Below, piece after piece: positions 1,557 to 62,925 of a stretch of DNA of 64,000 nucleotides. Source of the DNA: a bacterium (GTDB lineage Bacteria > UBA8248); assembly GCA_965207065.1 (NCBI GenBank), contig OZ242260.1:32001-96000 (forward strand), in the 5' to 3' direction. The notes under the pieces are model-generated. The model ran no database searches. It saw only the letters and a list, made by a program, of their open reading frames with translations, and was not told the origin of the DNA. Position 1 is the first letter of the stretch. Each line of letters begins with the position of its first letter. The position numbers were made by a program, and so were the translations under genes.

Positions 1557-3125
1557 ATGCCTGCAATATCCAGCAACCCGTCCCCGGCGAGTGCCACTCT
1601 GGCGGGCTTCACCGATTTGACCCTTGCCTTCGTTGACGATCTCCGCAGTCGCGCCGAGATTTCCGGGACACTGTTTGGCAAGTACCGGCGCATCGCCCTT
1701 CACTTCCTGGTCTGGCTTGAACTCACCCGTATCGAACTCAAGACGGTGGACGGCGCGATCATCGAGCGCTTTCTGCAGCACGATTGTCGTTGCGGCGCAT
1801 CTTGCGCGCCGGTTCGTCTGCGGCGTTGGCGCAAGCGCCGCACATCACCCATGCTCATGGCGTTCATCCGGTTCCTCGAGCAGACGGGGCATGTCGAGAC
1901 ACCCGGTGAGCTGGACGACAATCTGCGGCTGCTGGGCGCGTTCCTCACCGGTTTGCGCGGCAATGGCTACACGGCTGCAACCCTCAGGTTGTACCGGAAA
2001 GGATGCACCGGTCTCATTGTCTGGCTCCATCTCTCACGCATCCGCCTGTGCGATCTGAGCGCGCAGGTCTATGCGCGCTTCGAGAACCGGTCGTTCGTCT
2101 GCTCGATCCCCGGGGTGTTTTGCGGCCACGAGAAGAGGCGACCCGGCACAGCTTACGCAACCGAACTGCGCGGCTTCCTGAAGCACCTCGTCTCGATCGG
2201 GCGGATCGATCCCCTGGAGCCGGTCCCGGTCGAGCAGGCGCCGCCCGTTCGCCTTGAGAGGTACGCCGTGTGGCTTGAACGCCATCGCGGCATCGGCGCG
2301 GGGACAATACGGCGACATGTGCGTTTGATCGGCGAGATGATGCCTGAACTTGGGGACGACCCCTGCGCCTGTGACGCGGCCCTGATCCGCCGGGTGCTGC
2401 TTGAGAAGATGCGCCCGCGGTCGCGGAGCTACGCCCGGACTCTGACAACCGCGATGCGCATGTATCTGCGGTTCCTGACCTGGGAAGGCAGCATCCCGGC
2501 CGCGCTGATCGCGGCCGTGCCGTCAGCGCCTCGTGGGCAGTTGTCGAGCTTGCCACGGTACATCACGTGCGACGATGTCGAACGCGCCATCGCCAGTTGC
2601 GGCGATGACCGGACGGGCGTGCGCGACCGGGCGATCCTGCTGCTTCTGGCACGGCTTGCCCTGCGGGCAGGAGACATCGTGGCCCTGCGCCTCGGCGACA
2701 TCGATTGGGACCGGGCCGAGATCCGTGTCTCGGGGAAGTCACGCCGAGAGGCGGCTCTGCCGTTGCCGCAGGATGCCGGCGATGCGCTCCATGTCTATAT
2801 CGCCACGGTGCGGCCGAGGGTGGATGAGGAGAAGGTGTTCCTCTGCACCCAAGCGCCCTGGCGAGCATTGGCCGACTCAAGCATCGTCAGTTCTCTGGCG
2901 AAACGCGCGCTCGACCGCGCCGGGGTCAAGACCTTTGCCGGCCGCGGTGCGCATGTGTTCCGCCATAGCCAGGCGACGGCGTTGCTCAGATCGGGCGCGA
3001 CGCTCGATGTCATCCAGTCGCTACTGCGCCACAGGTCACCGAACACGACGATGATCTACGCCAAGACCGATGCGGTCATGTTGCAGGAGATCGCTCAGCC
3101 CTGGATGGGGAGGAGCGACCAATGA
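1557..3125 (+). CDS. ritA: RIT tyrosine recombinase A
   Basis: RDRAILLLLARLALRAGDI, HVFRH, LRH...MIY catalytic motifs; AGGAG RBS. Confidence 0.9.
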   Translation: MPAISSNPSPASATLAGFTDLTLAFVDDLRSRAEISGTLFGKYRRIALHFLVWLELTRIELKTVDGAIIERFLQHDCRCGASCAPVRLRRWRKRRTSPMLMAFIRFLEQTGHVETPGELDDNLRLLGAFLTGLRGNGYTAATLRLYRKGCTGLIVWLHLSRIRLCDLSAQVYARFENRSFVCSIPGVFCGHEKRRPGTAYATELRGFLKHLVSIGRIDPLEPVPVEQAPPVRLERYAVWLERHRGIGAGTIRRHVRLIGEMMPELGDDPCACDAALIRRVLLEKMRPRSRSYARTLTTAMRMYLRFLTWEGSIPAALIAAVPSAPRGQLSSLPRYITCDDVERAIASCGDDRTGVRDRAILLLLARLALRAGDIVALRLGDIDWDRAEIRVSGKSRREAALPLPQDAGDALHVYIATVRPRVDEEKVFLCTQAPWRALADSSIVSSLAKRALDRAGVKTFAGRGAHVFRHSQATALLRSGATLDVIQSLLRHRSPNTTMIYAKTDAVMLQEIAQPWMGRSDQ

Positions 3126-4051
3126 GCACAACGATCACCGATCATGTCGCGCGCTTTGTCGCGATCAAGCGGTCGCTCGGTTACCGGTTTACACAGAACG
3201 AACGGATGCTGCGCAGCTTTGCGCGGTTCGCCGAGGCTCGCAACGAGACCCGCATCTGCTCCGGGACCGCTCTTGAGTGGGCCTCGGCATCGAAGGCGGC
3301 ATCAGCGCAAGTGCAAGTCAAAAAGCTCCGTGTGCTCCATGACCTTGCCCTCTGGCTGCACGCGGAGGACGATCGCCACGAGGTGCCGCCTCGTGATGCG
3401 CTGGGGCGTTCGACGCGGCGGAGGCCGAAGCCGTACCTGATATCGGTCCCGGACATCGGCAAACTGCTGACCGCGGCCCTGTCGGTGGGACCCGCCGAAA
3501 CCATCGCCCCGCTGACCTGGCACTGCCTGTTCGGTCTCATTGCAGCGACCGGCCTGCGCATCGGCGAAGCCCTTGCATTGACGCTGGATGACATCACCCC
3601 TGACGGCTTGGTCATCCGGGATACGAAGTTCGGCAAGACGAGGATGGTCGCGCTGCACCCGACCACCTGGGAAGCGCTCGAACTCTACCTTGAGGCACGG
3701 CTCAGGGAGACAACGCCGGACCGGCACCTGTTCGTGATCGCAACCGGCCGAAGTCCAGACAAAAGCCATGTGCGCGGTGTCTTCCGCAAACTCGCCGAAC
3801 AAGCGGGCCTGCGCAGACCTGGCGCGGGGCGGGGGCCGACCCTGCACTCGCTGCGACACTCCTTCGCCGTCCGGTCACTGGAGATGCTGCCTCCCGGCGC
3901 CGGAGCGGGCCGGCACATGCTGGCTCTGGCCACCTATCTCGGCCACGTCCATGTCACCAGTACCTACTGGTATCTGGAGGCGACCCCGGTTCTGCTGCAC
4001 GGCATCGCCGAGGCGGTGGAACAGGCTCACACCAATGGAGGCGCCCGATGA
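3122..4051 (+). CDS. ritB: RIT tyrosine recombinase B
   Basis: TGLRIGEAL, TKFGKTR, HSLRHSFA, LATYLGH...TYWYL; ATGA overlap with ritA. Confidence 0.92.
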   Translation: MSTTITDHVARFVAIKRSLGYRFTQNERMLRSFARFAEARNETRICSGTALEWASASKAASAQVQVKKLRVLHDLALWLHAEDDRHEVPPRDALGRSTRRRPKPYLISVPDIGKLLTAALSVGPAETIAPLTWHCLFGLIAATGLRIGEALALTLDDITPDGLVIRDTKFGKTRMVALHPTTWEALELYLEARLRETTPDRHLFVIATGRSPDKSHVRGVFRKLAEQAGLRRPGAGRGPTLHSLRHSFAVRSLEMLPPGAGAGRHMLALATYLGHVHVTSTYWYLEATPVLLHGIAEAVEQAHTNGGAR

Positions 4052-5040
4052 CCGATCTTGCCCCCCATCTCTCCGCCTTCCTGCGGGAGTACCTTCCCAA
4101 CGTACGGCAATGCAGCCGCCACACCTTGCAGGGCTACACCGAGTGCTTCCGGCTGCTCGTGGCCTACACGGCGCAACGGATCCGGACCCGTCCCTGCAAG
4201 CTCAAGATCGAGCACTTCACGGTGGCGTTGCTGTCGGCCTTCCTCGAGTCCCTGGAGAAGGACCGCAACAACAGTGTGGGCACACGCAATGTCCGCCTTG
4301 CCGCCATCAAGTCGTTCTTCCGTTATCTGGAATACCGTGTGCCGAGCTGCCTCGACCTCGCGTTGCAGGTACGCGCCATACCGCAAAAGACCACCGACAA
4401 GCCGCTGATCGACTGGCTCGATCGGACCGAAATGCAAGCGATCCTGGATGCCCCGGATACTGGAACGATGGCAGGTCTGCGAGACCGGGCGATGCTGCAT
4501 CTGTGCTATGCCGCCGGGTTGAGGGTGTCGGAACTGACAACGCTCACGCTCGACAGCGTGTCCGGCCCCCGACTCGGGACCATCCGCATCCTGGGCAAGG
4601 GACGACGCGAACGGGAACTGCCCATGTGGAAGGAAACGAGGACCGTCCTCAATCAGTGGCTCGACGCCAGGCCGTCGGTCACCAACCGATACATGTTCCT
4701 CAATGCACGGGGACGGGCGATGAGCACGGACGGCTTCGCATACCTGCTCGACAAGCATGTCACCACGGCCGCCAAGACCGTCGCGTCGATCAAGACCAAG
4801 AGAGTGACCCCGCATGTGCTGCGTCATTCCGCGGCCATGGCGATCCTGCATGCCACCGGCGACATCCGAAAGGTCTCCCTGTGGCTCGGTCATGCGCACC
4901 TCAAGACCACCGAGATGTACGTCCGTGCGAGCCCGGCCGAAAAGCTGCGCATCCTGGAGACCCGCACGCCGCCGTCCATTAGACCGGGGACCTTCCCCGG
5001 TGTCAGGGACAGCTTGACGGAACTTCTCGGTGGCAAGTGA
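4048..5040 (+). CDS. ritC: RIT tyrosine recombinase C
   Basis: GLRVSEL, GKGRRER, HVLRHS, WLGH...EMY; ATGA overlap with ritB. Confidence 0.92.
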   Translation: MTDLAPHLSAFLREYLPNVRQCSRHTLQGYTECFRLLVAYTAQRIRTRPCKLKIEHFTVALLSAFLESLEKDRNNSVGTRNVRLAAIKSFFRYLEYRVPSCLDLALQVRAIPQKTTDKPLIDWLDRTEMQAILDAPDTGTMAGLRDRAMLHLCYAAGLRVSELTTLTLDSVSGPRLGTIRILGKGRRERELPMWKETRTVLNQWLDARPSVTNRYMFLNARGRAMSTDGFAYLLDKHVTTAAKTVASIKTKRVTPHVLRHSAAMAILHATGDIRKVSLWLGHAHLKTTEMYVRASPAEKLRILETRTPPSIRPGTFPGVRDSLTELLGGK

Positions 5041-5139: not shown

Positions 5140-6576
5140 TTATGCCGAGCTCGGCATAACGGCATAGCCCTGCACGCCGACGGTCCGGTCCTTCTCCGAG
5201 AGAATGAGTTTCACCGCCCGTTTCTGCCCGTCCGTGAGCGGCCCCTTGCGCAGGTGCCGCTCCACCATCCAGCCGCGCATTGCCGCACCGCCCCGGCCTG
5301 AGCCCGCGCGCATGAGCGCGATCGTCTCGCGCTCCCGGGCCACGGTCAGGTCGGTCGTGAGCCCGTCGCCTCCCTTGAGCGCCGGCGCATCGTGAACGCG
5401 GCCCTCGCGCGCGAGACCCTCGACCACCCGCTCGATGGCTCCGATGGACGCGGAGCCGGGGCCGTAGGCGAGCGCCGCGGCGAGAAGATCCGTCCTCGCG
5501 AACACCGCATCGCGCTCCGAGAGATGGGCGAGCGCCCACTCGACGGCCTCCTTCGCGGGGTCCGTCCGCAAGGGATGATTGATGAGATTCGCCTGCCGAT
5601 CCGCCCCCGCTTCCCGTGTCCTCTCTTTCCCAGGGACGTGCAACGCCCGTTCGGTGGCCGAGGCGACGAGCGCTTTTGCGTCCAAGCCGAGTTCCGACGC
5701 CTGTTTCGTCCATATCCCGAGCAGCGCCTCCCTGTCCACGTCGCGCTTTTGCGCGCGGGTCATCAGGGCCGCCCGCCGGGCGAGGTGCTGGTTCTCCGCC
5801 GTGGCGCCGTGGCCACGGCTTTCCATCGCCGCCTCGATCTCGGCGCGGCGCGAGGAGAACGCCTCGATGGTTTCGCGCGAGACGCCCCCGATCTCGAACC
5901 GCCCGTCGGCGTGGGTCTTCTCGACCCGGTACCCGAGTCTCGCCAGATCACCCGCGAGTTCGCTCCGGTAGAGCGCGCCCAGCAGCATCTTGGAGGCGTA
6001 GAGGCGCTCGTTCGCCATGGTCCTCCACTTGCCCTCCGCGCCGAGCAGCATGTTGGCTAGAACCGAGTGGGTGTGCAGCGCCGGGTCTAGGTTTCTCGAT
6101 ATCTCGTGCCGGAACGTGGCGATCACGGCCTTCTGGCCACCGGCCCGTACCATCCGTCCCGTCTCCGGGTCCTTCATCCTCGTCTCGGCGGCGTTTCGCT
6201 CGAACCAGTCGAGCGCCCGCGTGACGGCGCGCTCGTGGGCGTCGACGACGCACGCATCGCCCCCGATGAGCGCGACCAGGGATACGGACTTGGGTGCGGA
6301 GAAGGTGAGGTCGCGCCCGGGCCGGTGGTGGATCTCTCCCTCCCGGGTCCTGCGGCCGAGACGTTGTCCGGAACCGTCGGGCACATGGCCCTCGAGCACA
6401 GCCCGGAACACGTCCGGGTCGACCGGACCCTCGAGCCCCAGGGTTTCGGCGCCCTTGCCGGCCCAGGCGCTCAGCATCCGGTGCTCGGCCGAGTCTTTAG
6501 CGTAGTAGCCGTCCCGCTCGTAGTAGGCCGCACCCCGCGAAGGGCTCGCCACCGCGCCGATCGAGGCAACCATCAT
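5140..6576 (-). pseudogene. trwC: MOBF (TrwC/TraI) relaxase, nuclease domain intact, helicase truncated by RIT insertion
   Basis: MMVASI start; YYERDGYY tyrosines, RPGRDLTFSAPKSVS, HEISRNLDPALHTH (HUH), FSSRRAEI; ends at GVQGYA of Walker A. Confidence 0.9.
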
Positions 6577-7217
6577 ATCCAGCGGCCGTATTCGCGCTCG
6601 CGAGGCGCGGGCGCGTCTTCGACGCCCGGGGCCGCCTTCCTGCGGTCCGTGGTGGCAGGCTGTTGTTTCTGGGGCCGCGGAGTATCCGGCCCCGGCGGAC
6701 GGTTCGCCGGTGTGCGGACAGGCGCCGTGGCCGCGGGCTTCGGTGAACCTGAGCCCGACCTCGTCCTGCGCGGCTCGTGCGGCGTGCGCCTCTCGCCGAG
6801 TTCGCCCTCCAGCTACCGGGCCAGCATCAGGCACATCAGCGCGGCGGCGAAGCCGCACCAGGCGCCAAGTTCGTCGGATCGCTTCGCCGTGTGGAGGAGA
6901 CGGTCCCGCGCCAGCAGCGCCTCGCCGCTGAACGTGAGATCGCTGCGGGCGATAGTCACTTCCTCCCCCTCCCTCGTCCGGAATTTGACCTGTGTCCTGG
7001 GGTCGAAGTGGAGTGCGAGCAGTGTTTCCGCCCAAAAGAGCTTGCCGCTCGCATGCCAGTCATGGCTCGTCGTGTCGCGAGCGAGACCGACGACGCAGGC
7101 CAGCGCCGACAAGGAAACGACGTAGACGGCCGTCAGGAGTAAGGAGCGGAACCGCGCGCCGGGATCGAGGAGGATCCTCCAGTCGGTGCGATTTCTGTCT
7201 CGTGCGCGGTTTCCCAA
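6573..7217 (-). pseudogene. Probable N-terminal remnant of a TraD-like type IV coupling protein
   Basis: Two hydrophobic segments flanking FDPRTQVKF; in-frame TAG at 6813-6815; the frame ends in an overlap with the relaxase start; no ATPase domain. Confidence 0.45.
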
Positions 7218-7393
7218 AGAGGCGTTCTCCCTATCCTGCGTGTCGCGGGAGCGGCGGCGGGGATTTCCCGCCGGCGCTCCCGTGGTCCTGGATGACGAAT
7301 ATAATACGAAATTATGAGGGTTTCAACCAGATGGAAAACGGAAATTCGACGATTTTACGACAGACACGCGCAGGCGTGCGATCAAGGCCATGC

Positions 7394-8050
7394 GTCTTCC
7401 CCCGGAACCGGATACCGGGGGGGCAGGAACGCCGGATGCGCCGTCGCCTCCCGGCGAAAACAGCTTCATTTGCTTTCTTGGTGGGGTTTACGGGTGAATC
7501 CATCGTCAGGCTTCCCCGCTTCATCCCCACGAAGGCGGGAACATGAATCAGTAATTGCCTGATTTCAAATTCATCGATTCAAAAGGTTCGGCATCGAAAC
7601 CATGGATCAAATGGTGCGATGATATGCTCCCTTGAAATGAGGGATGCGAAAATCCGCCAGGAGGTTTTTGGTGCTCTTGCGACAGGCAGGCGAGGACAAG
7701 AAAAGGCATACGTGGCACCGAAGAACGGTAGCCAGAGCGGAAAACTCCTGCATCTACACCGACCGCATAGCTTGATAGATGTCCACATAAGAAAGGGACC
7801 GCCCTCTCTCAATTTCAGTGGATCCTGGGAGAGAGGGACAGTCCCTTTTTCTCATATACCAAGTACATCCGAGTCGAGTAGAAAGAAGAACAGGGGCTGC
7901 CCGTTGTTCCCGCTCCCGGCTCGAGGACTCAAACTCATAGCAAGGAGCGGTACTGTTTGCTTCATCACGAGGGAAACAACCAACGGGCAACCCCCTTTTT
8001 CGCTCTCCTTTTACCGCATCAGGCCACGGGGCTGACCCCGGGGGCGAAGG
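7394..8050. repeat. Non-coding repeat, copy 1 (about 650 bp shared with 62263-62925; core shared with 25746-26085)
   Basis: Near-identical DNA in three places. Confidence 0.92.
7714..8010 (-). ncRNA. Candidate structured non-coding RNA downstream of lipoprotein B1
   Basis: Stems on minus strand: GGGGUUGCCCGUUG/CAACGGGCAGCCCC closing a multibranch loop, CCGCUCC/GGAGCGG, GGGACUGUCCCUCUCUC/GAGAGAGGGCGGUCCC, CAUCUA/UAGAUG, GGCUACCG/CGGUGCC. Confidence 0.5.
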
Positions 8051-8062
8051 CGTCCTGCGCTC

Positions 8063-9796
8063 TTACCTGTGCGCCCCGAACGCCCCGATGAAGGCGGCCT
8101 CTCTCGCCGGATTGCTTTGCTGGGTAGCGTAAAAGGTTCCCGCTACTGAACCGGGAGCAGCAGGTGCATAAGTCGTCGTGATGGTCGTGGTTATGTTCGG
8201 AGCCGTTCCCGTTCGTTCCGTTTCTATGGACTTTGTGGCTCTTCTCCCAAAGAACTGGCCTTTCCAGCCGCCCCTGAAGGATTTGTCGTCCACGACGCCG
8301 ATTGACGTACCGGCAAAGAAAGGGGTGCTTATGACATTTTCAAGGGGCTGTTTCTGCAGTTCGATGCTGCCCGCCATGGACTGTCCACCGGCGACGATGT
8401 TCGTGACCGCGCCCTGGATGCTGCCGTTATTATCGCTATCAGAACCGCCTGTCGGATTCCGGAACTCGGCCGTGAGCTCGACGCTCGCCGTGAAATAGCT
8501 CGTATCTCCTCCCGCGATGTAGGCGCCGTTCGCATTTCCCCTGTATCTGGCCATCATGTCTTTGCCGTCATCCACAATTGCTTCAATGGTGTTTACTCCA
8601 TCGGTTACCACACAATTTCTGTCAGTCGTAGTCGTTCCAACCGTAGTTGCGTCACTCGCTTCAATGCCCGAGCAGAAAGTGAAAGATGCGGGGATGGGCT
8701 GGCTCCCATACGCGAATGCCGTAATCCTGGAAGCATCGAAATTGGCGCCTACCGTCAGCCAGATTCCGGCGAGCAGATAGTCGGCGTCGGGCACATCTAC
8801 TTCTTCATACCGCTGGTCGCCATCTACATCCGGATCGTCATTCACGACATTTGTTCTTGTTCTTACGTTGAGTCTCGTTTTCGTGATGTCCGTGTAGGCG
8901 TTGACGTAGGTGGCGCCGGTGGCGTTTGTCAGATCGAATCCATGGGGAAGGGGCCCCGTTCCGGTAAGGAGAGTCGTCTTGCTGTCCGATGTAATATCCT
9001 GCACGCTGACCGTACGCTGTCCGGTAACCCTGGCTGTGGCCGGGCCGGTATCCGCAGCGTATGTGGCGCATGGCGCTGTGCAAGATTCGGTATCAGCGAC
9101 ACCACCCACATCACGAGCCGTCGCGCCAACCTCGCCTACGACAATGCTACCCTCAGTGGCAGTGGTACCAGTAGTCAGGGCGGTCACATCCAACACGGCG
9201 TCGGAGAGGAGCTTGTTCGCTCTCACATGTTGAATGAGCGAGGACCCGTTCGTTGCTGCGCGCTCATCCACTTCGCGTTCCATGCGACGGTTCGCGGCCG
9301 CTTGCACAACGCCCTGAATTCTGGATATTGCCGATGCGGATGTGTTGAGAGTGACTTGAGCCTCTCTCGCGTCCGCAAGCGCCGTATTCGCCTCCGCCGG
9401 CGTAGTAGCCAGGGTTGCCGCGGTATTCGCGCTCACGATATCCGCCAGGGCTCCTTGCGCCGTATTGCTTTCGCTGTTGGCGTCCGTGATTTGAGCGGGC
9501 GTGGCGTCGGCATTGGTCCGTATCGCGGCCGCAGCCGAACTCGCCGCCCCCGCTCGTGCCCGGGCATTCGTAAGGATACTTGAAAGTTCCCGTCTCGCGT
9601 CGGCTATCCTGTCAGCATCGGTCTTTGGTGGATCCATGCAGTCCGGGTACGTCCCGATCTGACCCTGCGGGCATTCCATCACCGTCGTCATATCTTCATC
9701 CGCAGTACCGCCGCCACCACCACCGCAACCGGAGGCAAATGCCGCAATGCACACGACAAGTACCGCCAATCCTGAATATCTGAGCATTTTCATCAC
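8063..9796 (-). CDS. Surface lipoprotein B1 with TbpB-like C-terminal beta-barrel
   Basis: Signal peptide + lipobox ASG-C, poly-Gly linker, Ala-rich helical region, DYLLAGIWL, YRGNANGAY, WKGQFFG, C-terminal GSVAGTF...FIGAFGAHR. Confidence 0.8.
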   Translation of the reverse strand: MMKMLRYSGLAVLVVCIAAFASGCGGGGGGTADEDMTTVMECPQGQIGTYPDCMDPPKTDADRIADARRELSSILTNARARAGAASSAAAAIRTNADATPAQITDANSESNTAQGALADIVSANTAATLATTPAEANTALADAREAQVTLNTSASAISRIQGVVQAAANRRMEREVDERAATNGSSLIQHVRANKLLSDAVLDVTALTTGTTATEGSIVVGEVGATARDVGGVADTESCTAPCATYAADTGPATARVTGQRTVSVQDITSDSKTTLLTGTGPLPHGFDLTNATGATYVNAYTDITKTRLNVRTRTNVVNDDPDVDGDQRYEEVDVPDADYLLAGIWLTVGANFDASRITAFAYGSQPIPASFTFCSGIEASDATTVGTTTTDRNCVVTDGVNTIEAIVDDGKDMMARYRGNANGAYIAGGDTSYFTASVELTAEFRNPTGGSDSDNNGSIQGAVTNIVAGGQSMAGSIELQKQPLENVISTPFFAGTSIGVVDDKSFRGGWKGQFFGRRATKSIETERTGTAPNITTTITTTYAPAAPGSVAGTFYATQQSNPAREAAFIGAFGAHR

Positions 9797-9930: not shown

Positions 9931-11748
9931 TTACTCAGCCTTCCACGTGCCGAAGGAACCGAGGATTCTGATCGGGTCGTTCACGTTGCCCGGCGCGGAA
10001 GCGCCGAAGGTGCCGGCGGCGGTCGTGGGGTATTGCGTTTGAGCCGCAGTTCCCGTCGCGCTGCTGGGACCGTAGAACTGGCCGCCCCAGTTGCCGACCA
10101 TGGTCCTGCCCGCCAGGGTGCCCGAAACAGTGGAAGAGAAACCCCCGGCGTGGGTGCCACTATCATCGCCATCGATGATATTCGCCTTCTTGAGCGTCAG
10201 CATGCCCTCAACGTCTATGCCGCCGGCCTTGATGCCTGAGACGGTGCCGGTGACGGCGCCCAGAAGGTCATCACCTTCACTATCGCTGGTATCATCATCA
10301 GAATCAGCCCCGACGGTTCCGCCGAAGTTGGCCGTCAGGCTGACGTCCGCGTCGAAGTATTCGACCATGCCGCCCGCCGAGTACAGGCCAGTCGCGACCC
10401 CGTTATACGTTGCCGAGTCCTTGAGCCTGGCATTGACAGTGAATACATCGATGCCGCTCGCGAATGCGCCTGTGGCGGCTACGTTCGCGGCTTCCGTAGC
10501 GGTCGGAACCCTTAGCCAGACGCCCCAGGCCAAGTAGTCGCCATCGGCCATGGTCATCGTGCCGGTTGCTGGCAGGAACTCGTAGCCTTGAATTGCCACG
10601 AGTTCACCATCGTCGTTGACGCTTATGGAGCACACTCCGGCGGTGGGGCAGTCGAAGAGTCCCGAAACCGGAGGCGCGTTGTCTGCGATGTTTGAATTGT
10701 ACGTTCCTTCGAAGTCGCTTCCGTCACCCGGGATATCACCAGTAACTCCCGCAGTCACGCCGGCGTCTGTTGGAAGCGCCGTAGCCGTGCCGGATGGGGT
10801 CGCATACTGCGTCACTGTTTTAGTCGGCTGAATGTCCGTGTAGACGTTGGCGTAAGTCATGCTGGTGACAGTGCCTGTGTCGGGGCTTTTTCCTACGAGC
10901 TCGGTGCCCATCCAGCCGCCGCGCATCGTGAGCGACACCGGCTCTTCGCCTCTGGTTACCGCATCCGCATTGGCAGAGTCCAGCGTCACAGTTAATCTGG
11001 GTCCGCTTGCATTGTAAGTTGCTCTTGCGCTGGCGGCTAATGCCGCGGGAGTCTCAGCTACGGTTCGGCCTTGAGAAACGCTTCCACCCGTAACCTCAGC
11101 AATATTGGGGGTGACAGTAGTAACAGTAGGAGTATTGCCTACCGTGGCTACGGCAGCAGCCGAAGCGGCTAGCGCAGTTCCCACTCTCATCGCGTTGGAA
11201 ACAGGCTTGGGAACGGCGTCGCCCGTCTTGCCTTCCAGCACGGCGTTGTTGATCATTTGCTGATTCGTGATCTTGTTCGCCAGCATGGTGATCCCCAGAC
11301 CGCGCTTCATACCGGCTTCCATCGCCATGTCGCGGTACTTCTCGGCCGCTGTCTGGTGCGTCATGGCCATTGCGGAAGTCGTGGCCATCTCCGCCGCGTC
11401 GGAAGCTTCCTTGGCCATCGCCGCGTATTTGTACGCGTTCGACATCGCCACAGGGTCCACCGCGCTTTCTACATAATCCTTGGCCTTCATATAGGCCATC
11501 ATGGCGGCTTCCTGCGCGCCGCTCAGGGCGCCTTCTTCGGCAACTTCCGCGGCAGAGGAGCACGAACCGTCCGCGTTATACCGACCGCCGTCACCCTCAC
11601 ACATTTCCTGCTGGGTCGGCATGGCGGACGTCTCTTCTTCAACGGCGGCCGTTCCGCCGCCGCCGCCGCAGCCGGCCAGCGTCAGTGCGAACACCGCCGC
11701 CAAGGCATAAGCGTAAAGCTTGCTTATCGATTTCTCTTTGAACATCAT
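9931..11748 (-). CDS. Surface lipoprotein A1 with TbpB-like C-terminal beta-barrel
   Basis: Lipobox LAG-C, poly-Gly, DYLAWGVWL, ATYNGVATGLY, FDADVSLTANF, WGGQFYG, AAGTFGA...GSFG. Confidence 0.8.
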   Translation of the reverse strand: MMFKEKSISKLYAYALAAVFALTLAGCGGGGGTAAVEEETSAMPTQQEMCEGDGGRYNADGSCSSAAEVAEEGALSGAQEAAMMAYMKAKDYVESAVDPVAMSNAYKYAAMAKEASDAAEMATTSAMAMTHQTAAEKYRDMAMEAGMKRGLGITMLANKITNQQMINNAVLEGKTGDAVPKPVSNAMRVGTALAASAAAVATVGNTPTVTTVTPNIAEVTGGSVSQGRTVAETPAALAASARATYNASGPRLTVTLDSANADAVTRGEEPVSLTMRGGWMGTELVGKSPDTGTVTSMTYANVYTDIQPTKTVTQYATPSGTATALPTDAGVTAGVTGDIPGDGSDFEGTYNSNIADNAPPVSGLFDCPTAGVCSISVNDDGELVAIQGYEFLPATGTMTMADGDYLAWGVWLRVPTATEAANVAATGAFASGIDVFTVNARLKDSATYNGVATGLYSAGGMVEYFDADVSLTANFGGTVGADSDDDTSDSEGDDLLGAVTGTVSGIKAGGIDVEGMLTLKKANIIDGDDSGTHAGGFSSTVSGTLAGRTMVGNWGGQFYGPSSATGTAAQTQYPTTAAGTFGASAPGNVNDPIRILGSFGTWKAE

Positions 11749-12310
11749 TTAGTGAGTCCTCCTGATTACATAGAAAAAGGGATTTTCCTGCGAATTTCCG
11801 GCTTTTTAGATCGAGGACTCATTTGGAATAGCATTGAATTCTTATATCTCATTGATATTTATCTTGTTATATTTTTTTTATTATGGATTGGAATCTGTGT
11901 TTCAAGGCCCGTAATCAAAAAGATAGCGGATTCATTACAAGTTCTGCGCGCCCTGTCGCGCCGGTGTCGGGCGACGGTCGCGACGAAGCGGGCCCGACGG
12001 CCAAGCGGACACGGATGATTTTTTACGAGAAAAATTCGATCTCGAGTGGCGCTCATGCGCGCCGGGCGGCCTAATCTTCCGCCAGCTTGAATGGCCCCGG
12101 AAAAAAACGGGCCGGGGCCATGGGTTTTTCGGCAACCCTTTTTGATGTAGATTCGGTTCTCGCCCGATACGGCAGAATTTCCGTCGCACTCGTTTCTCCG
12201 GAGGTAGTCCCGTTTCGAAGCGATGGGGATGTACTCCATGTTCTTGTGGCGTGGAACTCCGCAAGCAGCGTTCTGCCCCGGATTGAGACAATATAGCGGA
12301 TGTGCTATAA

Positions 12311-12888: not shown

Positions 12889-13268
12889 GCGGAATTCCGT
12901 AGCGGTAGGGTGATTTTCGATATCGACGTCTCCTGCGGGCGACAACCTGCGGCGGCGCCTCTCCTGAAGGTGCGCACGCTTGGAATGACCCCCGCGCGGC
13001 AGTATCGCGAAGCGATGGTGTGAGGAGGACAGGACGATCCTGGCGGCGGTGGTCAATCCCGAGCGGCTCGCCGCTCTGCATAATTGGCCGCGGGCCACAT
13101 CGAGAGTGCGAAAAACCGGAAAACACAGGGCCGCCCTGACGAATCGACGGGAAAGTGGTAATAAAACCCGTCCCATTTCGACTGTCCATCAAACATGAAT
13201 TGATAAACGTCTTGGAAACGGCTAGATTTATCGTCGCCAAGTCGACCGAGAATCAAGGAGACAATCCC

Positions 13269-14075
13269 GTGAGGCTCGATGAATTCCTGGCCCGGCGCGC
13301 CGTGTTCACTGTGGAGGAGGTGGAGCGTTATCTCTCGGAGCGCGGGTCGGGAAATGCCCACACCCGCAAGTCGCTGCTGGCCTACCACCGCAGGCGCGGC
13401 CGGATCGTCCGCGTGCGCCGCGGCCTCTACGCGAGGGTTCCCCGGGGCATGGACCCCGAAACCACGCCGGTCGACCCGTACCTGGTGGCGGCCGGGGCGG
13501 CCCCGGATGCGGTGCTGGGCTACCACACGGCCCTGGAGTTTCACGGAAAGGCGTACTCGGTCCACTGGAGGCTGGTCTACGTCTCGGGGCGCAAGTCGCT
13601 TCCATTCGCGTTTCAGTCGCACGAGTACCGGCGCGCGCCGGTGCCGCCGCCGCTTGTGTCAAAAGGGGAGGAGATGTTCGGCGTCACCCGCCACGAGCGC
13701 TCCGGCGGGAAACTCCGGGTGACGGGCCACGAAAGAACCCTGGTGGACGTGCTGGACAGGCCGGACCTGGCCGGAAGCTGGGAGGAGATATGGCGGTCGC
13801 TGGAGTCGGTGGAGTTCTTCGACCTGGAGCAGGTCGTCGAGTACGCCCGCCTGCTCGGGAATGCGACCACGGCGGCGAAGGTGGGTTTTTTCCTCGACCG
13901 GCGCAGGGAGTCCCTGATGGTGGAAGAGGCCCATCTCGAATCCCTGCGCAGGCTGCGTCCCCGCCGGCCCCACCACATGACGCGGGGCAGGCCCCGGGGC
14001 TGCCGGCTGGTGAAGGACTGGAACCTGATGGTCCCGGATGAAATCCTGGAGCGCTCCTGGGGAGAGGCGTCGTGA
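13269..14075 (+). CDS. abiEi: AbiEi-like type IV TA antitoxin / transcriptional regulator
   Basis: AAGGAG RBS + GTG; IVRVRRGLY, VLGYHTALEFHG, VTGHERTLVDVLDRPDLAGSWEE. Confidence 0.82.
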   Translation: MRLDEFLARRAVFTVEEVERYLSERGSGNAHTRKSLLAYHRRRGRIVRVRRGLYARVPRGMDPETTPVDPYLVAAGAAPDAVLGYHTALEFHGKAYSVHWRLVYVSGRKSLPFAFQSHEYRRAPVPPPLVSKGEEMFGVTRHERSGGKLRVTGHERTLVDVLDRPDLAGSWEEIWRSLESVEFFDLEQVVEYARLLGNATTAAKVGFFLDRRRESLMVEEAHLESLRRLRPRRPHHMTRGRPRGCRLVKDWNLMVPDEILERSWGEAS

Positions 14076-15046
14076 GATTCTCCGCCCCGGATATCCTTCC
14101 CGCGGCCGGGGCCAACGGATTCAACGCGGAGGTCGTCGAGAAGGTATTGCACCTGATGCGTCTTTTGAACGCCCTGAACGCGCATCCCTACCTGAAGGGG
14201 AAATGGGTTCTGAAGGGCGGCACGGCCCTGAACCTGTTCGTTCTCCGCCACCCCCGGCTGTCGGTGGACATCGATCTCAACTACGTGGGCGCGCTGGAGC
14301 GCGGGAAAATGCTCGCGGCCCGGTCGAAAATGGATCAGGCGGCCGAGGCGGTCTTCTCCCGTGAGGGCTTCACGGTCCGCAGGAAGCTGGGCGAACACGC
14401 CGGCGGGAAGTGGCGGTTGAACTATCAGAGCTACACCGGGCGCTCGGGCAGCCTCGAAGTGGACGTGAATTTCATGTTCAGGCAACCGCTATGGGATATC
14501 CGCCATGCCGATTCGCATCCGCTCGGGGGTTTCAGGGCCGAAGGCGTTCCCCTTCTCGACCTGCACGAACTCGTGGCCGGCAAGCTCTCGGCGCTGTTTT
14601 CCCGCAGGCAGGCGAGAGACCTCTTCGATTGCCATCGCATACTCGATTCGGACCGACTCGATCACGAGCGGCTCCGGATCGCCTTTGTCGTCTACGGGGC
14701 GATGAACCGAAAGGACTGGCGGACCATCTCGATCGAAGACGTGGACTATGACGAGTCGGAGCTGGCCCGGCTGCTCACTCCCACTCTCCGGGTCCGCCGG
14801 CCGCCGGCGCAGGAGGAGACGCTCGCGGAATACGGGGCGCGACTGCTGGAGGAGTCCCGGAGAAGCCTCGCCTCGCTGTTGCCGTTCACCGAAGCCGAGC
14901 AGGCGTTCCTCGACCTCCTGTTGGACGAAGGGGAAATCGACGCGACGTACCTGACCTCCGATACATCCCTGCAGGAACGTATCCGGGTCCAGCCGCTTCT
15001 CGAGTGGAAGGCCATCAACGTGCGTCGCCACAAGGGGTCGTCCTGA
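14072..15046 (+). CDS. abiEii: AbiEii/AbiGii nucleotidyltransferase toxin
   Basis: VLKGGTALNLF...RLSVDIDLNY, K..AL.SR.QARDLFD. Confidence 0.88.
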   Translation: MRFSAPDILPAAGANGFNAEVVEKVLHLMRLLNALNAHPYLKGKWVLKGGTALNLFVLRHPRLSVDIDLNYVGALERGKMLAARSKMDQAAEAVFSREGFTVRRKLGEHAGGKWRLNYQSYTGRSGSLEVDVNFMFRQPLWDIRHADSHPLGGFRAEGVPLLDLHELVAGKLSALFSRRQARDLFDCHRILDSDRLDHERLRIAFVVYGAMNRKDWRTISIEDVDYDESELARLLTPTLRVRRPPAQEETLAEYGARLLEESRRSLASLLPFTEAEQAFLDLLLDEGEIDATYLTSDTSLQERIRVQPLLEWKAINVRRHKGSS

Positions 15047-19840: not shown

Positions 19841-21124
19841 ATGGGCATGAATATCTATGAGCGCGCACAAAAATCGACGCTTCTCCAACGCCTTGGCGAG
19901 GAACCCCAACGGCTGATCATCGTCACCGGACCACGCCAGACGGGCAAAACCACACTCGTTCAGCAGGTTCTGGATGGGACCTACCTGCCGTCTCGCTATC
20001 TGCCGGTCGACGAGCCTGATCGGGGTACGCTCCCCCCCGTTCACGGTATCGAAGCCGACACGACCACGTTCCCGGGACAAGCTGCTGTCCCCTTTGCCGG
20101 CGAAAGAGACACGCGGTGGCTGGTGCGTCATTGGGAGCGTGCCCGGATGGATACCAGCCGTTCAGAGCGGGGCTTTGTTCTGGCAATCGACGAAGTTCAG
20201 AAAATCCCCAACTGGTCGGAAACGGTCAAGGGGCTGTGGGACGCGGACAGGCGTCATAGCCGCCCTCTCCATGTGATTCTGCTCGGTTCGGCTCCTTTGC
20301 TCATGCAGAAGGGGATGAGCGAAAGCTTGGCCGGCCGATATGAAACGATTCACCTCACTCATTGGTCATTCGCTGAAATGTCGACGGCATTCGATTTCGA
20401 CCTTCCGCATTATATCTATTTTGGGGGCTATCCGGGTGCCGCCCCGCTAGTTCTCGACCAAGAACGCTGGCGCTCATACATCGTCGGCTCGCTGATCGAA
20501 CCGAACATTGAGCGTGATATTCTCGCGATGCAGCGAGTGGATAAACCTGCGCTGCTGAAGCGATTGTTCGAACTCGGCGCAGAGTATTCCGGGCAGATTC
20601 TGTCCTACAACAAGATGCTCGGTCAACTTCAGGACGCCGGCAACACGACGACCCTGGCGCGCTATTTAGACTTGTTGTCGGACGCCGGTCTGATTACGGG
20701 TCTCTCCGGATACGCCCGCGGTGCCCATCGACGCAGGGCCTCGAGTCCGAAACTCAACGTGCTCAACACCGCGCTCATGTCGTCTCAGACTGGCTATACG
20801 TTCGGGGAGGCGCAAGCCGACCGGAGCTTCTGGGGGCGTCTGGTCGAAAGCGCGGTCGGCGCGCATCTGTTCAACACGAAACCACCCGACGTCCGCCTTC
20901 ATTTCTGGCGAGACAGAAACCACGAGGTAGATTTCGTCCTGGAGCGCGGCCGAAGGCTCGCCGCTTTTGAAGTGAAGAGCGGTTTTCGCAAGTCGAACAT
21001 GAGCGGACTCAGACTATTTGGAGAACGGTTCGACGTCACAGCCTCGATCATCGTCGGCGAGGGCGGCGTTGCACTCCCGGAATTTCTGTCCGTCCCGGTC
21101 GGGGAATGGTTCGAAAGCTCATGA
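19841..21124 (+). CDS. AAA_14 ATPase with DUF4143 / C-terminal nuclease-like domain
   Basis: GPRQTGKTT, IDEVQK, LLGS, ESLAGR, GGYPG, GRLVESAV, EVDFV...FEVKS. Confidence 0.9.
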   Translation: MGMNIYERAQKSTLLQRLGEEPQRLIIVTGPRQTGKTTLVQQVLDGTYLPSRYLPVDEPDRGTLPPVHGIEADTTTFPGQAAVPFAGERDTRWLVRHWERARMDTSRSERGFVLAIDEVQKIPNWSETVKGLWDADRRHSRPLHVILLGSAPLLMQKGMSESLAGRYETIHLTHWSFAEMSTAFDFDLPHYIYFGGYPGAAPLVLDQERWRSYIVGSLIEPNIERDILAMQRVDKPALLKRLFELGAEYSGQILSYNKMLGQLQDAGNTTTLARYLDLLSDAGLITGLSGYARGAHRRRASSPKLNVLNTALMSSQTGYTFGEAQADRSFWGRLVESAVGAHLFNTKPPDVRLHFWRDRNHEVDFVLERGRRLAAFEVKSGFRKSNMSGLRLFGERFDVTASIIVGEGGVALPEFLSVPVGEWFESS

Positions 21125-25726: not shown

Positions 25727-25745
25727 GTTTTAAATAGATATACCC

Positions 25746-26042
25746 GGCACCGAAGAACGGTAGCCAGAGCGGAAAACTCCTGCATCTACACCGACCGCAT
25801 AGCTTGATAGATGTCCACATAAGAAAGGGACCGCCCTCTCTCAATTTCAGTCGATCCTGGGAGAGAGGGACAGTCCCTTTTTCTCATATACCAAGTACAT
25901 CCGAGTCGAGCATAAAGAAGAACAGGGGCTGCCCGTTGTTCCCGCTCCCGGCTCGAGGACTCAAACTCATAGCAAGGAGCGGTACAGTTTGCTTCATCAC
26001 GAGGGAAACAACCAACGGGCAACCCCCTTTTCGCTCTCCTTT
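25746..26042 (-). ncRNA. Candidate structured non-coding RNA, copy 2
   Basis: Near-identical to 7714-8010; homology stops at the base of the last hairpin (GGCACCGaagaaCGGTAGCC). Confidence 0.5.
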
Positions 26043-29677: not shown

Positions 29678-30047
29678 TTAGTGAGTCCTCCTGAATACAT
29701 AGAAAAAGGGATTTTCAGCGAATTTCCGGCTTTTTAGATGGAGGACTCTTTTGGAATAGCATTGGATTCTTATATCTCATTGAAATCTATCTTGTTATAA
29801 TTGTTATATTATGGCGTGAAATTTGCATTTTAAATCCCGTAATCAAAAAGATAGCAGTTTTATTGCAAATTTTGCGCGTCCTGTCGCGCCTGTGTCGGGG
29901 CGGCGCAAGTATTCGTTCGGTCGTGGGGTGATAAAGAAAAGGAAAGCACCTGCTGAAGCTGGCTACACCGCGCAATTCCTACGAATGTCTCCGGCATCGA
30001 CTAAGCTATCACCCCTCCGCCAAACTGTTACCGGCGCAATTCTCAGT

Positions 30048-62262: not shown

Positions 62263-62925
62263 GTCTTCCCCCGGAACCGGATACCGGGGGGGCAGGAACG
62301 CCGGATGCGCCGTCGCCTCCCGGCGAAAACAGCTTCATTTGCTTTCTTGGTGGGGTTTACGGGTGAATCCATCGTCAGGCTTCCCCGCTTCATCCCCACG
62401 AAGGCGGGAACATGAATCAGTAATTGCCTGATTTCAAATTCATCGATTCAAAAGGTTCGGCATCGAAACCATGGATCAAATGGTGCGATGATATGCTCCC
62501 TTGAAATGAGGGATGCGAAAATCCGCCAGGAGGTTTTTGGTGCTCTTGCGACAGGCAGGCGAGGACAAGAAAAGGCATACGTGGCACCGAAGAACGGTAG
62601 CCAGAGCGGAAAACTCCTGCATCTACACCGACCGCATAGCTTGATAGATGTCCACATAAGAAAGGGACCGCCCTCTCTCAATTTCAGTGGATCCTGGGAG
62701 AGAGGGACAGTCCCTTTTTCTCATATACCAAGTACATCCGAGTCGAGTAGAAAGAAGAACAGGGGCTACCCGTTGTTCCCGCTCCCGGCTCGAGGACTCA
62801 AACTCATAGCAAGGAGCGGTACTGTTTGCTTCATCACGAGGGAAACAACCAACGGGCAACCCCCTTTTTCGCTCTCCTTTTATCGCCTCAGGCCTCGGGG
62901 CTTAACCCCGGGGGCCTGAGGCGTC
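62263..62925. repeat. Non-coding repeat, copy 3
   Basis: Near-identical to 7394-8050. Confidence 0.92.
62583..62880 (-). ncRNA. Candidate structured non-coding RNA, copy 3
   Basis: As 7714-8010; one stem change (C to U on minus strand) keeps pairing as G-U. Confidence 0.5.

Follow-up and report, generated by a model that had tools for sequence, protein, structure and literature searches.

The window, a stretch of 64,000 nucleotides, has three surface-lipoprotein operons on its minus strand, each followed by a copy of the same repeat. With 7701-7999 as the reference, the further copies, which are direct repeats, lie at 25733-26031 (97% identical) and 62570-62868 (100%), in agreement with the first-pass annotation, which had reported three near-identical copies behind divergent genes. 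The divergence of the genes is also apparent, as the C-terminal domains of operons A and B are 48% identical at the protein level and the gene ahead of copy C belongs to another subfamily. The genes and the RNA cores within the repeats are as follows.

7892..7995, minus strand, RNA core copy A (covariance-model match of 131.6 bits; RNAalifold consensus; pair counts)
8063..9796, minus strand, last gene of operon A, a lipoprotein with lipobox ..ASGCGGGG and a TbpB/fHbp-like C-terminal barrel (predicted), ending in ..FIGAFGAHR
9931..11748, minus strand, first gene of operon A, a lipoprotein (MMFKEKSISKLYAYALAAVFALTLAGCGGGG...)
25924..26027, minus strand, copy B of the RNA core, of type 1 (132.8 bits), behind lipoprotein gene 26094-27782
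27917-29677, minus strand, first gene of operon B
62761..62864, minus strand, copy C of the RNA core, of type 1 (128.6 bits), behind lipoprotein gene 63001-63999+
63001-63999+, minus strand, lipoprotein gene of copy C, of another subfamily, ending in ..AAGAFGARKK

The ribosome site of operon C falls just past the end of the window. The whole genome has 10 copies of the RNA, and 8 of its 17 ORFs with the C-terminal domain of the family have the RNA behind them, these being the last genes of operons. The element had been said to stand behind every such locus, which is the case for the three operons of the window and not for the genome. It had also been described as a discrete unit of 300 nt, and this proved too wide, the repeat being composite with its genus-wide conservation limited to about 104 nt (7892-7995).

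Lipobox signal peptides in the family read ..LAGCGGGG or ..ASGCGGGG. No match to the lipoprotein sequence was obtained in Pfam, NCBIfam or the PDB sequences, Foldseek alone returned nothing for its model at E <= 0.001, and Pfam TbpB_B_D was detected weakly in 6 of 54 family members. Given these empty sequence searches, the identity of the lipoproteins is taken from fold comparison together with the weak hits of some relatives. An AlphaFold2 model of the last 230 amino acids of gene 8063..9796 (pLDDT 91.7) gave VIA-align Z-scores of 12.4 with NHBA, 12.2 with fHbp and 10.5-11.0 with the TbpB C-lobe; values of about 10 were obtained with hemophilin, HphA and HpuA, and plain OMP barrels score alike. 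On this model the C-terminal domain is predicted to be an 8-stranded barrel of the TbpB/fHbp/HpuA kind. A diversity-generating retroelement target site was also considered for these genes; the coding part for this domain is conserved, not variable. Three matches to Slam (PF04575) exceed the cut-off in the genome, the best of them adjoining a class III lipoprotein gene, and none lies inside the operons of the window.

The conserved unit is a three-way-junction RNA of about 104 nt, for which the minus strand is the gene-sense strand in the window. In copy A it has the following parts.

7981-7995 with 7892-7906, minus strand, P1, 15 bp (RNAalifold consensus)
7974-7979 with 7957-7962, minus strand, P2 hairpin (RNAalifold consensus)
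within 7892..7995, minus strand, P3, a composite arm with a tip of a 3-bp stem and an 8-nt loop (RNAalifold consensus)
7964..7972, minus strand, L2, the apical loop of P2, CCUCGUGAU (type 1), complementary to AUCACGAGG, a leader box in class II lipoprotein operons
7923..7932, minus strand, L3, the apical loop and 3′ stem strand of P3, UUGAGUCCUC, complementary to the ribosome site GAGGACUCA(A)

On either strand the fold is more stable than expected by chance (z -6.7 for minus and -6.0 for plus). The RNAalifold consensus of 68 sequences comprises 32 pairs, with compensatory double changes in 12 and 99.3% of the cells paired, while slid controls gave 39-60%. The observed value was reached in 0 of 500 shuffles for four of five measures and in 2 of 500 for the fifth. 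Across the 68 homologues the minus strand has 1921 Watson-Crick, 235 G-U and 16 mismatched cells, against 1921, 5 and 246 respectively on the plus strand, which bears out the first-pass remark that the G-U pairs favour the minus strand. A further remark, that one small stem reads better on the plus strand, is true of a recurrent C.A opposition in P3, which RNAalifold leaves as an internal loop. The covariation and the strong G-U asymmetry favour a gene-sense transcript, and so an element that acts as RNA rather than as DNA. In the alignment of homologues the loops are more conserved than the stems, the loops show indels of 1 and 2 nt and substitutions track base pairs. These last features speak against a small protein gene, as does the shortening to 87 aa, in copy 2, of the 138-aa plus-strand ORF (7619-8035) that crosses the element in copies 1 and 3. 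With no Pfam match either, a coding role for this ORF, or for a frame on the minus strand, is scarcely credible.

Within one Nitrospinota genus (sponge-type bacteria), the covariance model identified the RNA in 17 of 23 genomes, with 103 copies in total and 3-16 copies per RNA-bearing genome, and zero in 19 genomes of sister genera; beyond the genus there are two homologues (G002 and a Binatia-labelled contig). Tandem copies are found at one locus, and one copy, here termed standalone, is syntenic across 17 loci. Rfam 15 gave 0 matches at the gathering score in the whole window and only noise at a relaxed threshold (best 20.5 bits against a threshold of 53.1), was empty at the standalone locus also, and ARAGORN identified 0 tRNA or tmRNA genes in the window. 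As no description was found in the literature searched for this RNA, the earlier label of an undescribed ncRNA stands, and on the strong support of sequence comparison it is a new RNA family of uncultured sponge-type Nitrospinota. Its association with lipoprotein loci also extends beyond the window. Sixty-eight of 77 copies sit 4-198 nt (the range of the spacer between stop codon and core across loci) behind a TbpB/fHbp-like lipoprotein ORF ending in the C-terminal strand of the family, and in five near-complete genomes 33 of 34 class I leaders, by hand comparison of coordinates, are followed on their own strand by the RNA at a distance of 1.8-5.4 kb.

Correia elements of Neisseria are intergenic inverted repeats of about 100-150 nt which are co-transcribed with their neighbours, surface protein genes included; they are mobile and occur in either orientation with many kinds of genes. 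A selfish miniature repeat of this type (MITE or Correia-like), spread by chance and with P1 as its terminal inverted repeats, would agree with the size of about 110 nt, the 15-bp inverted termini, the copy number and the tandem copies at one locus. Such an origin is nevertheless very improbable, as the 68 of 77 copies share one orientation behind one gene family, no target duplication or flanking direct repeat is seen at the ends in the alignment, the internal stems covary with G-U pairs on one strand only, and one copy has remained syntenic. It is in this fixed orientation, gene-family specificity and covarying internal helices that the RNA differs from Correia elements.

The core is flanked by modules of more limited distribution.

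7701..7790, minus strand, downstream module with two small hairpins, lineage-specific and outside the conserved RNA (locus search)
7791..7850, minus strand, long GC-rich interrupted hairpin with an A run on one side and a U-rich run on the other, resembling a terminator on either strand (sequence and fold)
8004..8062, minus strand, spacer from the stop codon to the core, containing a small hairpin (about 8022-8046) and, immediately 5′ of P1, a run rich in purines (8 own-genome copies aligned)

Among the 95 loci searched, the hairpin at 7791-7850 and the stretch 7701-7790 had matches in 5-6, all from a single other genome. The module 7701-7790 has 86-89% identity in 5 loci, all from one other genome, and among the copies of its own genome it is missing from E, F and G and diverged in H. 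The terminator scan, which has a loop limit of 8 nt, left hairpin 7791-7850 unflagged and flagged the 3′ side of P1 in copy A on the minus strand. The U run at P1 is missing in type 2 copies, and the 7791-7850 hairpin looks more terminator-like than the P1 end.

The two apical loops of the RNA are complementary to the leaders of the lipoprotein operons, with the following features in the window.

11753..11761, minus strand, ribosome-binding site GAGGACUCA of the first gene of operon A, 4 nt before the AUG, the 9-nt L3 complement
11813..11821, minus strand, UGAGUCCUC repeated in cis within the operon A 5′ leader, the partner in an anti-ribosome-site hairpin
29682..29690, minus strand, ribosome-binding site GAGGACUCA of the first gene of operon B

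In L3 it is the loop sequence UGAGUCCUC which is complementary to the ribosome site GAGGACUCA, and class I operons accordingly have a 9-nt complementarity between the L3 of their RNA and their own translation start. The L3 sequence is identical in 26 of 26 parsable model-derived loci (30 in total, with a loose pattern). With both L3 and the ribosome site invariant in the genus, the pairing is marked by co-conservation and not by covariation. Any loop containing UCCUC would complement the Shine-Dalgarno core, and in the two homologues from outside the genus the complement is down to a 6-nt core. A 19-mer around the ribosome site has 57 occurrences in 14 of 23 genomes of the genus (0 for a reversed-pattern control), though the leaders are paralogues and their many sites are thus not independent events. 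The genome has 43 sites for GAGGACTCA, 9 of them being the RNAs themselves and at least 14 lying 4-8 nt before start codons of lipoprotein loci. The 8-mer complement of L3 is present in 7 of 19 lipobox-CGGG leaders compared to 1 of 4186 control leaders. Only a minority of class I leaders have a cis copy of UGAGUCCUC.

L2 differs between the RNA types. In type 1, CCUCGUGAU is complementary over 9 nt, without a mismatch, to the mini-leaders at G000 3991833 and 3992186, while in type 2 the loop is CAUCGUCG, the complement of CGACGAUG in the class III operon beside the Slam translocon gene. With both loops considered, type 1 RNA has perfect matches of 10+9 nt to the class II mini-leaders and type 2 RNA has matches of 9+8 nt to class III, neither being equalled in shuffles (0/1000 each), and the two matched segments coincide exactly with the two apical loops. 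A plain inverted copy of the RNA would have the leader boxes in a different order. Across the genus, 14 of 23 genomes contain the pattern CACGA-N(2-12)-GAGGACTCA, with 69 occurrences in all (6 for the reversed pattern), and it is missing from all six RNA-less genomes. By hand comparison, type 2 RNA is found on class II operons in 11 of 12 genomes with a class II leader; in the twelfth, this leader lies on a short contig.

L2 is open, with an opening energy of 0.4 kcal/mol, and accessibility-corrected sums for the two-loop pairs are -15.6, -10.2 and -11.0 kcal/mol. The match of operon A to its own leader involves one loop and competes with the cis hairpin, for a net -1.3 kcal/mol. RNAduplex of the core with the 382-nt leader of operon A did not outperform shuffles (-84.8, shuffle mean -84.1), and RNAcofold of RNA and leader gave no gain over shuffles, a null result attributed to the inability of the method to represent loop kissing. 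The standalone syntenic copies have a different L3 (UGGGUCCUC). Targets of the standalone loop (GAGGACCCA) are scattered at ordinary ribosome sites with no convincing conserved one among them, the two-box site at G000 775019 not being conserved and one conserved site having no start codon nearby.

As its loops are complementary to the ribosome-binding regions of the operons, the RNA probably shuts down or cross-controls translation of the same gene clusters. The tie to expression proposed in the first-pass annotation can thereby be worded as a concrete hypothesis, which we hold at a probability of about 0.5, namely that the RNA may be a 3′-UTR regulator directed against the ribosome sites of the lipoprotein operons by means of two kissing loops, like OppZ/CarZ or icaR. 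Transcripts of the surface-lipoprotein operons would carry the RNA as their 3′ untranslated tail, and in this genome the separate terminator-like hairpin comes after it. L3 (UGAGUCCUC) would pair in vivo with GAGGACUCA of the first gene, and L2 with a box a few bases upstream of the ribosome site, that of type 1 in class II operons and that of type 2 in class III. With its start region paired in this way, the message would be closed to ribosomes and probably become open to attack by RNases. A one-loop match may give negative feedback on the RNA's own operon and a two-loop match a stronger cross-repression of other operons, with the RNA potentially acting inside the full mRNA or as a 3′ fragment released by processing. 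The genome has a gene for RNase E/G, and no match to Hfq (PF17209) was found in it at 96% completeness, a combination that fits a structured kissing-loop RNA.

The RNA might instead be a passive 3′-end domain, which stabilises or terminates the mRNA or docks an RNA-binding protein, the complementarity being a vestige or a coincidence of anti-Shine-Dalgarno-like sequence. We regard this as unlikely. Many copies do have a U-rich run behind the 15-bp GC-rich stem that closes the junction, the 3′ side of this stem on the minus strand is the one marked by the terminator scan, the loop sequences are invariant in the way that protein sites tend to be, and beyond the genus the complement is that of the 6-nt SD core only. 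However, type 2 copies are without the U run and the genome at hand has its separate terminator-like hairpin, while two independent complements of 8-11 nt fall on open loops, have type-specific partners that shuffles do not reproduce, and are directed at boxes kept in the leaders of 14 genomes.

Conserved flanks are also a feature of pilin and opa-type loci, and by analogy the 3′ flank and 5′ leader could be DNA homology anchors for recombination or gene conversion by which the variable middle of the cassettes is swapped. The operons are mosaic, with conserved ends and a diverged middle. RNA types 1 and 2 occur behind all four protein subfamilies, which indicates that flank and gene body have been shuffled, and within the genome the copies are 97-100% identical with different genes ahead. 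The identity shared by copies 1 and 3 (A and C) extends leftward as far as 7394 and stops at the 5′ edge of the core. An anchor would need no fold, yet the stems covary, G-U pairs are confined to one strand and the loops are conserved above the stems. As the whole explanation it is therefore distinctly improbable, though an anchoring effect, and with it the exchange of cassettes named in the first-pass annotation, could operate alongside an RNA function without taking its place.

If the RNA is a translational regulator, it could go further and form a programmable hierarchical silencing network among the paralogous surface-lipoprotein operons, a possibility that we consider doubtful. Each expressed class I operon would export a two-fingered type 1 RNA in its mRNA tail, and the class II operon, with its three to five start regions in tandem, would be clamped by it; the type 2 tail of class II would then do the same to the class III operon next to Slam. 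The set of surface lipoproteins made and the amount of translocon-linked cargo would then be determined from RNA to RNA, without a protein regulator or Hfq. Cross-regulation occurs between fimbrial or flagellin loci, and such a network would be its post-transcriptional counterpart.

Only a few model organisms are known to have bacterial 3′-UTR regulators, most of which are sRNAs with a linear seed and a dependence on Hfq. Hairpin loops that contact the ribosome-binding region, in some cases without Hfq, are found in OxyS-fhlA and in the C-rich loops of staphylococcal RNAIII; these are free-standing sRNA genes, while the RNA described here is embedded in the mRNA tails of one gene family. OppZ and CarZ of Vibrio cholerae are autoregulatory sRNAs derived from 3′ UTRs and, as described there, share with this RNA its place at the 3′ end of an operon and a complementarity to the translation start of their own transcript, through which they exert negative feedback (PMC7398697). 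The RNA likewise lies on the strand of the operon, behind the last gene. From the same description, OppZ and CarZ have a linear seed, associate with Hfq and are released by RNase E, whereas here there are two hairpin loops of a three-way junction in a genome with no PF17209 match, and the strongest matches, those by two loops, are with paralogous operons other than its own. The icaR mRNA of Staphylococcus aureus is described as having a C-rich 3′-UTR motif which pairs with its own ribosome site, blocks initiation and forms an RNase III substrate (PMC3868564). Here too, the predicted 3′ UTR has an anti-SD motif that complements the SD of the same mRNA. In that account icaR is a single gene with one motif (UCCCCUG), unlike the covarying fold behind many paralogous operons with its second specificity loop of at least two types. 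A compact three-way junction with two loops matching the ribosome-binding region, the second type-specific, is found on a whole TbpB-like multigene family. Were the pairing real, it would offer a testable mechanism for a symbiont to coordinate many variable surface proteins and a natural modular two-loop design for RNA-based translational control.

Among mobile-element features, attC, MITE and oriT were rejected on polarity, orientation, strand bias and gene linkage. For an integron attC the polarity is reversed (GTT in the 5′ arm and AAC in the 3′ arm), the folding strand is the coding strand and there are no arrays. The only integrases nearby are those of a three-recombinase element. A TrwC relaxase fragment and a coupling-protein-like ORF lie to the left of copies A, D and H only.

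A repeat search of the window returned one repeat family, at 7701-7999, 25733-26031 (97%) and 62570-62868 (100%), and a three-way alignment agreed, bearing out the three copies (A, B and C) reported in the first-pass annotation. Each lies just downstream of a gene:

8063-9796, minus strand, gene before copy A
26094-27782, minus strand, gene before copy B
63001-63999+, minus strand, gene before copy C

All three genes encode lipoproteins possessing a lipobox and a common C-terminal strand (..GAFGA..); elsewhere they are divergent, that of copy C belonging to another subfamily, as had also been claimed. The near-identity of the copies hints at a possible role as a DNA homology anchor for cassette exchange, which is compatible with an RNA role. 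A MITE is a further rival explanation.

A BLAST search with the region across the entire genome (4.48 Mb) identified more, diverged copies. An alignment of eight own-genome loci shows only about 7888-8003 to be common to them, with the left end of homology varying, and the long terminator-like hairpin 7791-7850 and the stretch 7701-7790 have counterparts in the loci of just a single further genome. The 300-nt element is therefore composite, with a genus-wide core and lineage-specific downstream modules, so that of the discrete 300-nt unit originally proposed the conserved core stands but not the whole. In most other genomes (many loci, e.g. L001, L003, L021) the window's hairpin is replaced by a different module of ~110 nt closed by GCCGACACCCC..GGGGUGUCGGC, a second conserved 3'-UTR domain just 3' of the core.

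The region folds better than its shuffles on both strands (z -6.7 and -6.0). From an alignment of 68 distinct copies in gene-sense orientation, RNAalifold gave a three-way junction as the consensus fold:

P1, 15 bp, closes the junction
P2, 6 bp, with an apical loop (L2) of 9-13 nt
P3, composite arm with a terminal 3-bp stem and an 8-nt loop (L3)

The fold is demonstrated in this alignment, with changes on both sides in 12 of the 32 consensus pairs and 99.3% of 2172 cells paired. Column shuffles were as good as the observed alignment in 0/500 cases for four measures and 2/500 for a fifth, and sliding the partners by 1-3 columns left only 39-60% paired. In the type 2 subtype of the RNA, three G-C pairs of P1 have become A-U pairs. 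The functional strand is unambiguously gene-sense, where these pairs comprise 235 G-U and 16 mismatches, against 5 G-U and 246 mismatches on the opposite strand, in line with the G-U argument for the minus strand made from the sequence alone. A small ORF, as a rival reading, is excluded because the loops have indels of 1 and 2 bases and the plus-strand ORF is not conserved.

The RNA is a real new family, outside every Rfam family. No match was found in the whole window at gathering score, agreeing with the earlier statement that no known riboswitch or ribozyme was recognised; a relaxed scan of 7300-8200 gave nothing above noise (top score 20.5 bits, threshold 53.1), ARAGORN found no tRNA or tmRNA, and full-text literature searches turned up no description of the RNA. 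An exact-pattern scan (one genome per species) returned 65 stretches in about 15 MAGs labelled 'Nitrospinota bacterium' or 'bacterium', one Binatia-labelled contig and one Bacteroidota contig, the last of which looks like a chance match. A covariance model built from the 68 copies was run on the own genome, where it found 10 sense copies, and on 51 genomes of the phylum. It gave 103 matches at E <= 5.2e-10 in 17 of the 23 genomes of the window's genus and none in the other six, none in 19 genomes of eight other genera of the family or in two genomes of other families of the order, and a single weak match, of 41 bits, in a further family (7 genomes). The lipoprotein C-terminal domain, searched with one query, is equally restricted (15 of 42 family genomes, all of the window's genus).

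Linkage to the lipoprotein genes is also established: 68 of 77 copies have, 4-198 nt upstream and in the same orientation, the stop codon of an ORF that ends in the family C-terminal strand. The remaining nine are one at a locus edge, the Bacteroidota match and seven orphans. A weak homolog in a distant genome outside the genus likewise lies behind such a gene, 280 nt downstream. The claim that every locus carries the element holds for the three operons of the window. Across the own genome, 8 of 17 ORFs with the C-terminal domain have the RNA behind them, and four of those without it are upstream genes of two-gene operons. Types 1 and 2 are each found behind all protein subfamilies, and so gene body and 3' flank have recombined; this shuffling of RNA types also hints at the DNA anchor.

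A diverged 'standalone' copy (1626569-1626682 of the own genome, G000) is syntenic in 17 loci, beside a VOC-family gene in 15, often with 2-3 tandem RNA copies spaced by about 185 nt. One genome still has an intact family gene of 322 aa there, ending 4 nt upstream of the first copy, and two others retain just a decayed C-terminus. The standalone site is therefore a lipoprotein locus that has lost its gene to erosion but preserved the RNA fold. On its 5' side (G000 1626169-1626470, plus strand) is a genus-conserved stretch of ~300 nt that could be a further structured RNA without a name; its arms (around GGCAUACAAUCC..GGAUUGUAUGCC) are complementary over a long range, its end resembles a terminator, and Rfam gave no match to it.

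The lipoproteins of the window had no matches in sequence libraries. Among relatives, 6/54 match Pfam TbpB_B_D and a few match FHBP_C, HphA_C or HpuA, all weakly. The last 230 residues were modelled with AlphaFold2 (pLDDT 91.7); the model was below significance with Foldseek alone, and was structure-aligned to known folds.

Structural alignments to the model (similar Z also for ordinary 8-stranded outer-membrane barrels)
NHBA C-domain, Z 12.4
fHbp C-barrel, Z 12.2
TbpB C-lobes, Z 10.5-11.0
Hemophilin, HphA and HpuA, Z about 10

On this modelling, the genes in front of the RNA are predicted to have TbpB-like products. The genome has three Slam (PF04575) genes.

During a test of 5'-3' pairing, L3 (UGAGUCCUC) proved exactly complementary to the ribosome site of operon A's first gene, GAGGACUCA. 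The genome contains 43 GAGGACTCA sites where composition predicts about 35; 9 of them are the RNAs themselves, and in at least 14 cases the site precedes a start codon in a lipoprotein locus by 4-8 nt. The 8-mer complement of L3 occurs in 7/19 leaders of lipobox-CGGG ORFs against 1/4186 control leaders, and no other part of the RNA gives a comparable leader peak. Three classes of operon leader were distinguished:

Class I, UCAG-GAGGACUCA-CUAA-AUG, on the first gene of nearly every operon in the loci of other genomes
Class II, AUCACGAGG-N3-GAGGACUCA, one locus per genome, second box a few bases 5' of the ribosome site
Class III, AUCACGACGAUGAG-GAGGACUCA, one locus per genome in two tandem copies, second box a few bases 5' of the ribosome site

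There are 57 occurrences of the class I 19-mer, spread over 14 of the genus's 23 genomes, with none in other genera and none for a reversed control; in five near-complete genomes compared by hand, 33/34 class I leaders have the RNA 1.8-5.4 kb downstream on the same strand. Class II and III leaders together number 69 in 14/23 genomes against 6 for the reversed control, and none occur in the six RNA-less genomes. All the leaders are paralogues, a weak point in the case for regulation. Ahead of the main class II start are 2-4 mini-leaders in tandem, and each contains a conserved upstream ORF of 11-40 codons. In the own genome the mini-leaders lie at 3991578-3992204 (minus strand), with the same arrangement in 10 other genomes; each has both boxes together with its tiny conserved ORF (..HATKPSPVS stop, or a longer form of 36-40 aa, ..TPVSWISRP..). 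They could represent leader peptides or a sponge that offers the RNA several sites.

Complementarity is perfect over 10 + 9 nt between type 1 RNA (L2 CCUCGUGAU) and the class II mini-leaders and over 9 + 8 nt between type 2 RNA (L2 CAUCGUCG) and class III, with 0/1000 shuffles as good in either case and both segments lying on the apical loops L2 and L3. The box order rules out a trivial inverted duplication as its source. L3 and the ribosome site do not covary because both are invariant, and beyond the genus only the 6-nt Shine-Dalgarno core remains complementary. By hand comparison, class II operons end in type 2 RNA in 11 of the 12 genomes with a class II leader; the class III lipoprotein adjoins the best Slam gene and, in the own genome, has no RNA behind it. 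RNA-leader pairing predicted by RNAcofold and RNAduplex was no stronger than that of shuffles, RNAcofold being unable to represent kissing loops.

Accessibility-corrected net energies of RNA-leader pairing
Type 1 with class II mini-leader, -15.6 kcal/mol
Type 1 with class II main leader, -10.2 kcal/mol
Type 2 with class III, -11.0 kcal/mol
Type 1 with operon A's own leader, -1.3 kcal/mol

The leader of operon A has a cis copy of UGAGUCCUC, found in a minority of class I leaders only. For the L3 variant of the standalone RNA no convincing target was identified. A repetitive protein of 140-190 aa (VGEN.MTEYEAASLAIQ...) near lipoprotein operons in several genomes (L001, L010, L012, L014, L025, L034, L042, L051; G000 523966, 535061) has the ribosome site GAGGACCCA, which matches this variant, possibly by chance.

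The reading that fits best is an anti-ribosome-site RNA within the mRNA tail, which may exert weak feedback on its own operon via L3 and strong, type-specific repression on other lipoprotein operons via L2 and L3. Transcription, loop-leader pairing and repression by the RNA are what we infer from sequence, and the regulatory model is concrete, testable and unproven; a rival reading makes the RNA a passive element that stabilises or terminates the mRNA or serves as a platform for protein. The genome has RNase E/G, and a search for an Hfq gene was negative. The closest known systems are OppZ/CarZ (PMC7398697) and icaR 5'-3' UTR pairing (PMC3868564), which the RNA resembles in principle by its proposed action. 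Unlike these, it folds into a covarying junction that carries two recognition loops, recurs behind the members of a multigene family, finds its best matches between operons rather than inside one, and occurs in a genome without detectable Hfq. The anti-ribosome-site RNA would belong to a known regulatory kind in a new form.

Other features of the window were as follows:

1557-5040, plus strand, three consecutive tyrosine-recombinase genes (recombinase-in-trio element)
5140-6576, minus strand, truncated TrwC relaxase gene abutting the trio
6813-7217, minus strand, conserved membrane ORF of 134 aa (its copy at L066 12756-13643 has 295 aa)
7217-7700, conserved non-coding stretch of ~480 nt
13155-15046, plus strand, AbiEi antitoxin/AbiEii nucleotidyltransferase toxin pair beside operon A
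21106-25143, plus strand, 1345-aa ORF convergent with operon B, no Pfam match
34728-36389, minus strand, 553-aa ankyrin-repeat protein with 102-nt tandem units (13 Ank repeats) and TPR-like neighbours

Such ankyrin-repeat proteins are typical of host-associated bacteria. The segment 1415-5139 has copies of 99.9% identity elsewhere in the genome and a partial copy within the window at 58115-59056. The membrane ORF and the ~480-nt stretch lie between RNA and relaxase in loci A, D and H (the last two elsewhere in the genome), with copy C having only 7394-7700, and may be left over from a conjugative module, as part of a coupling protein or an oriT region.
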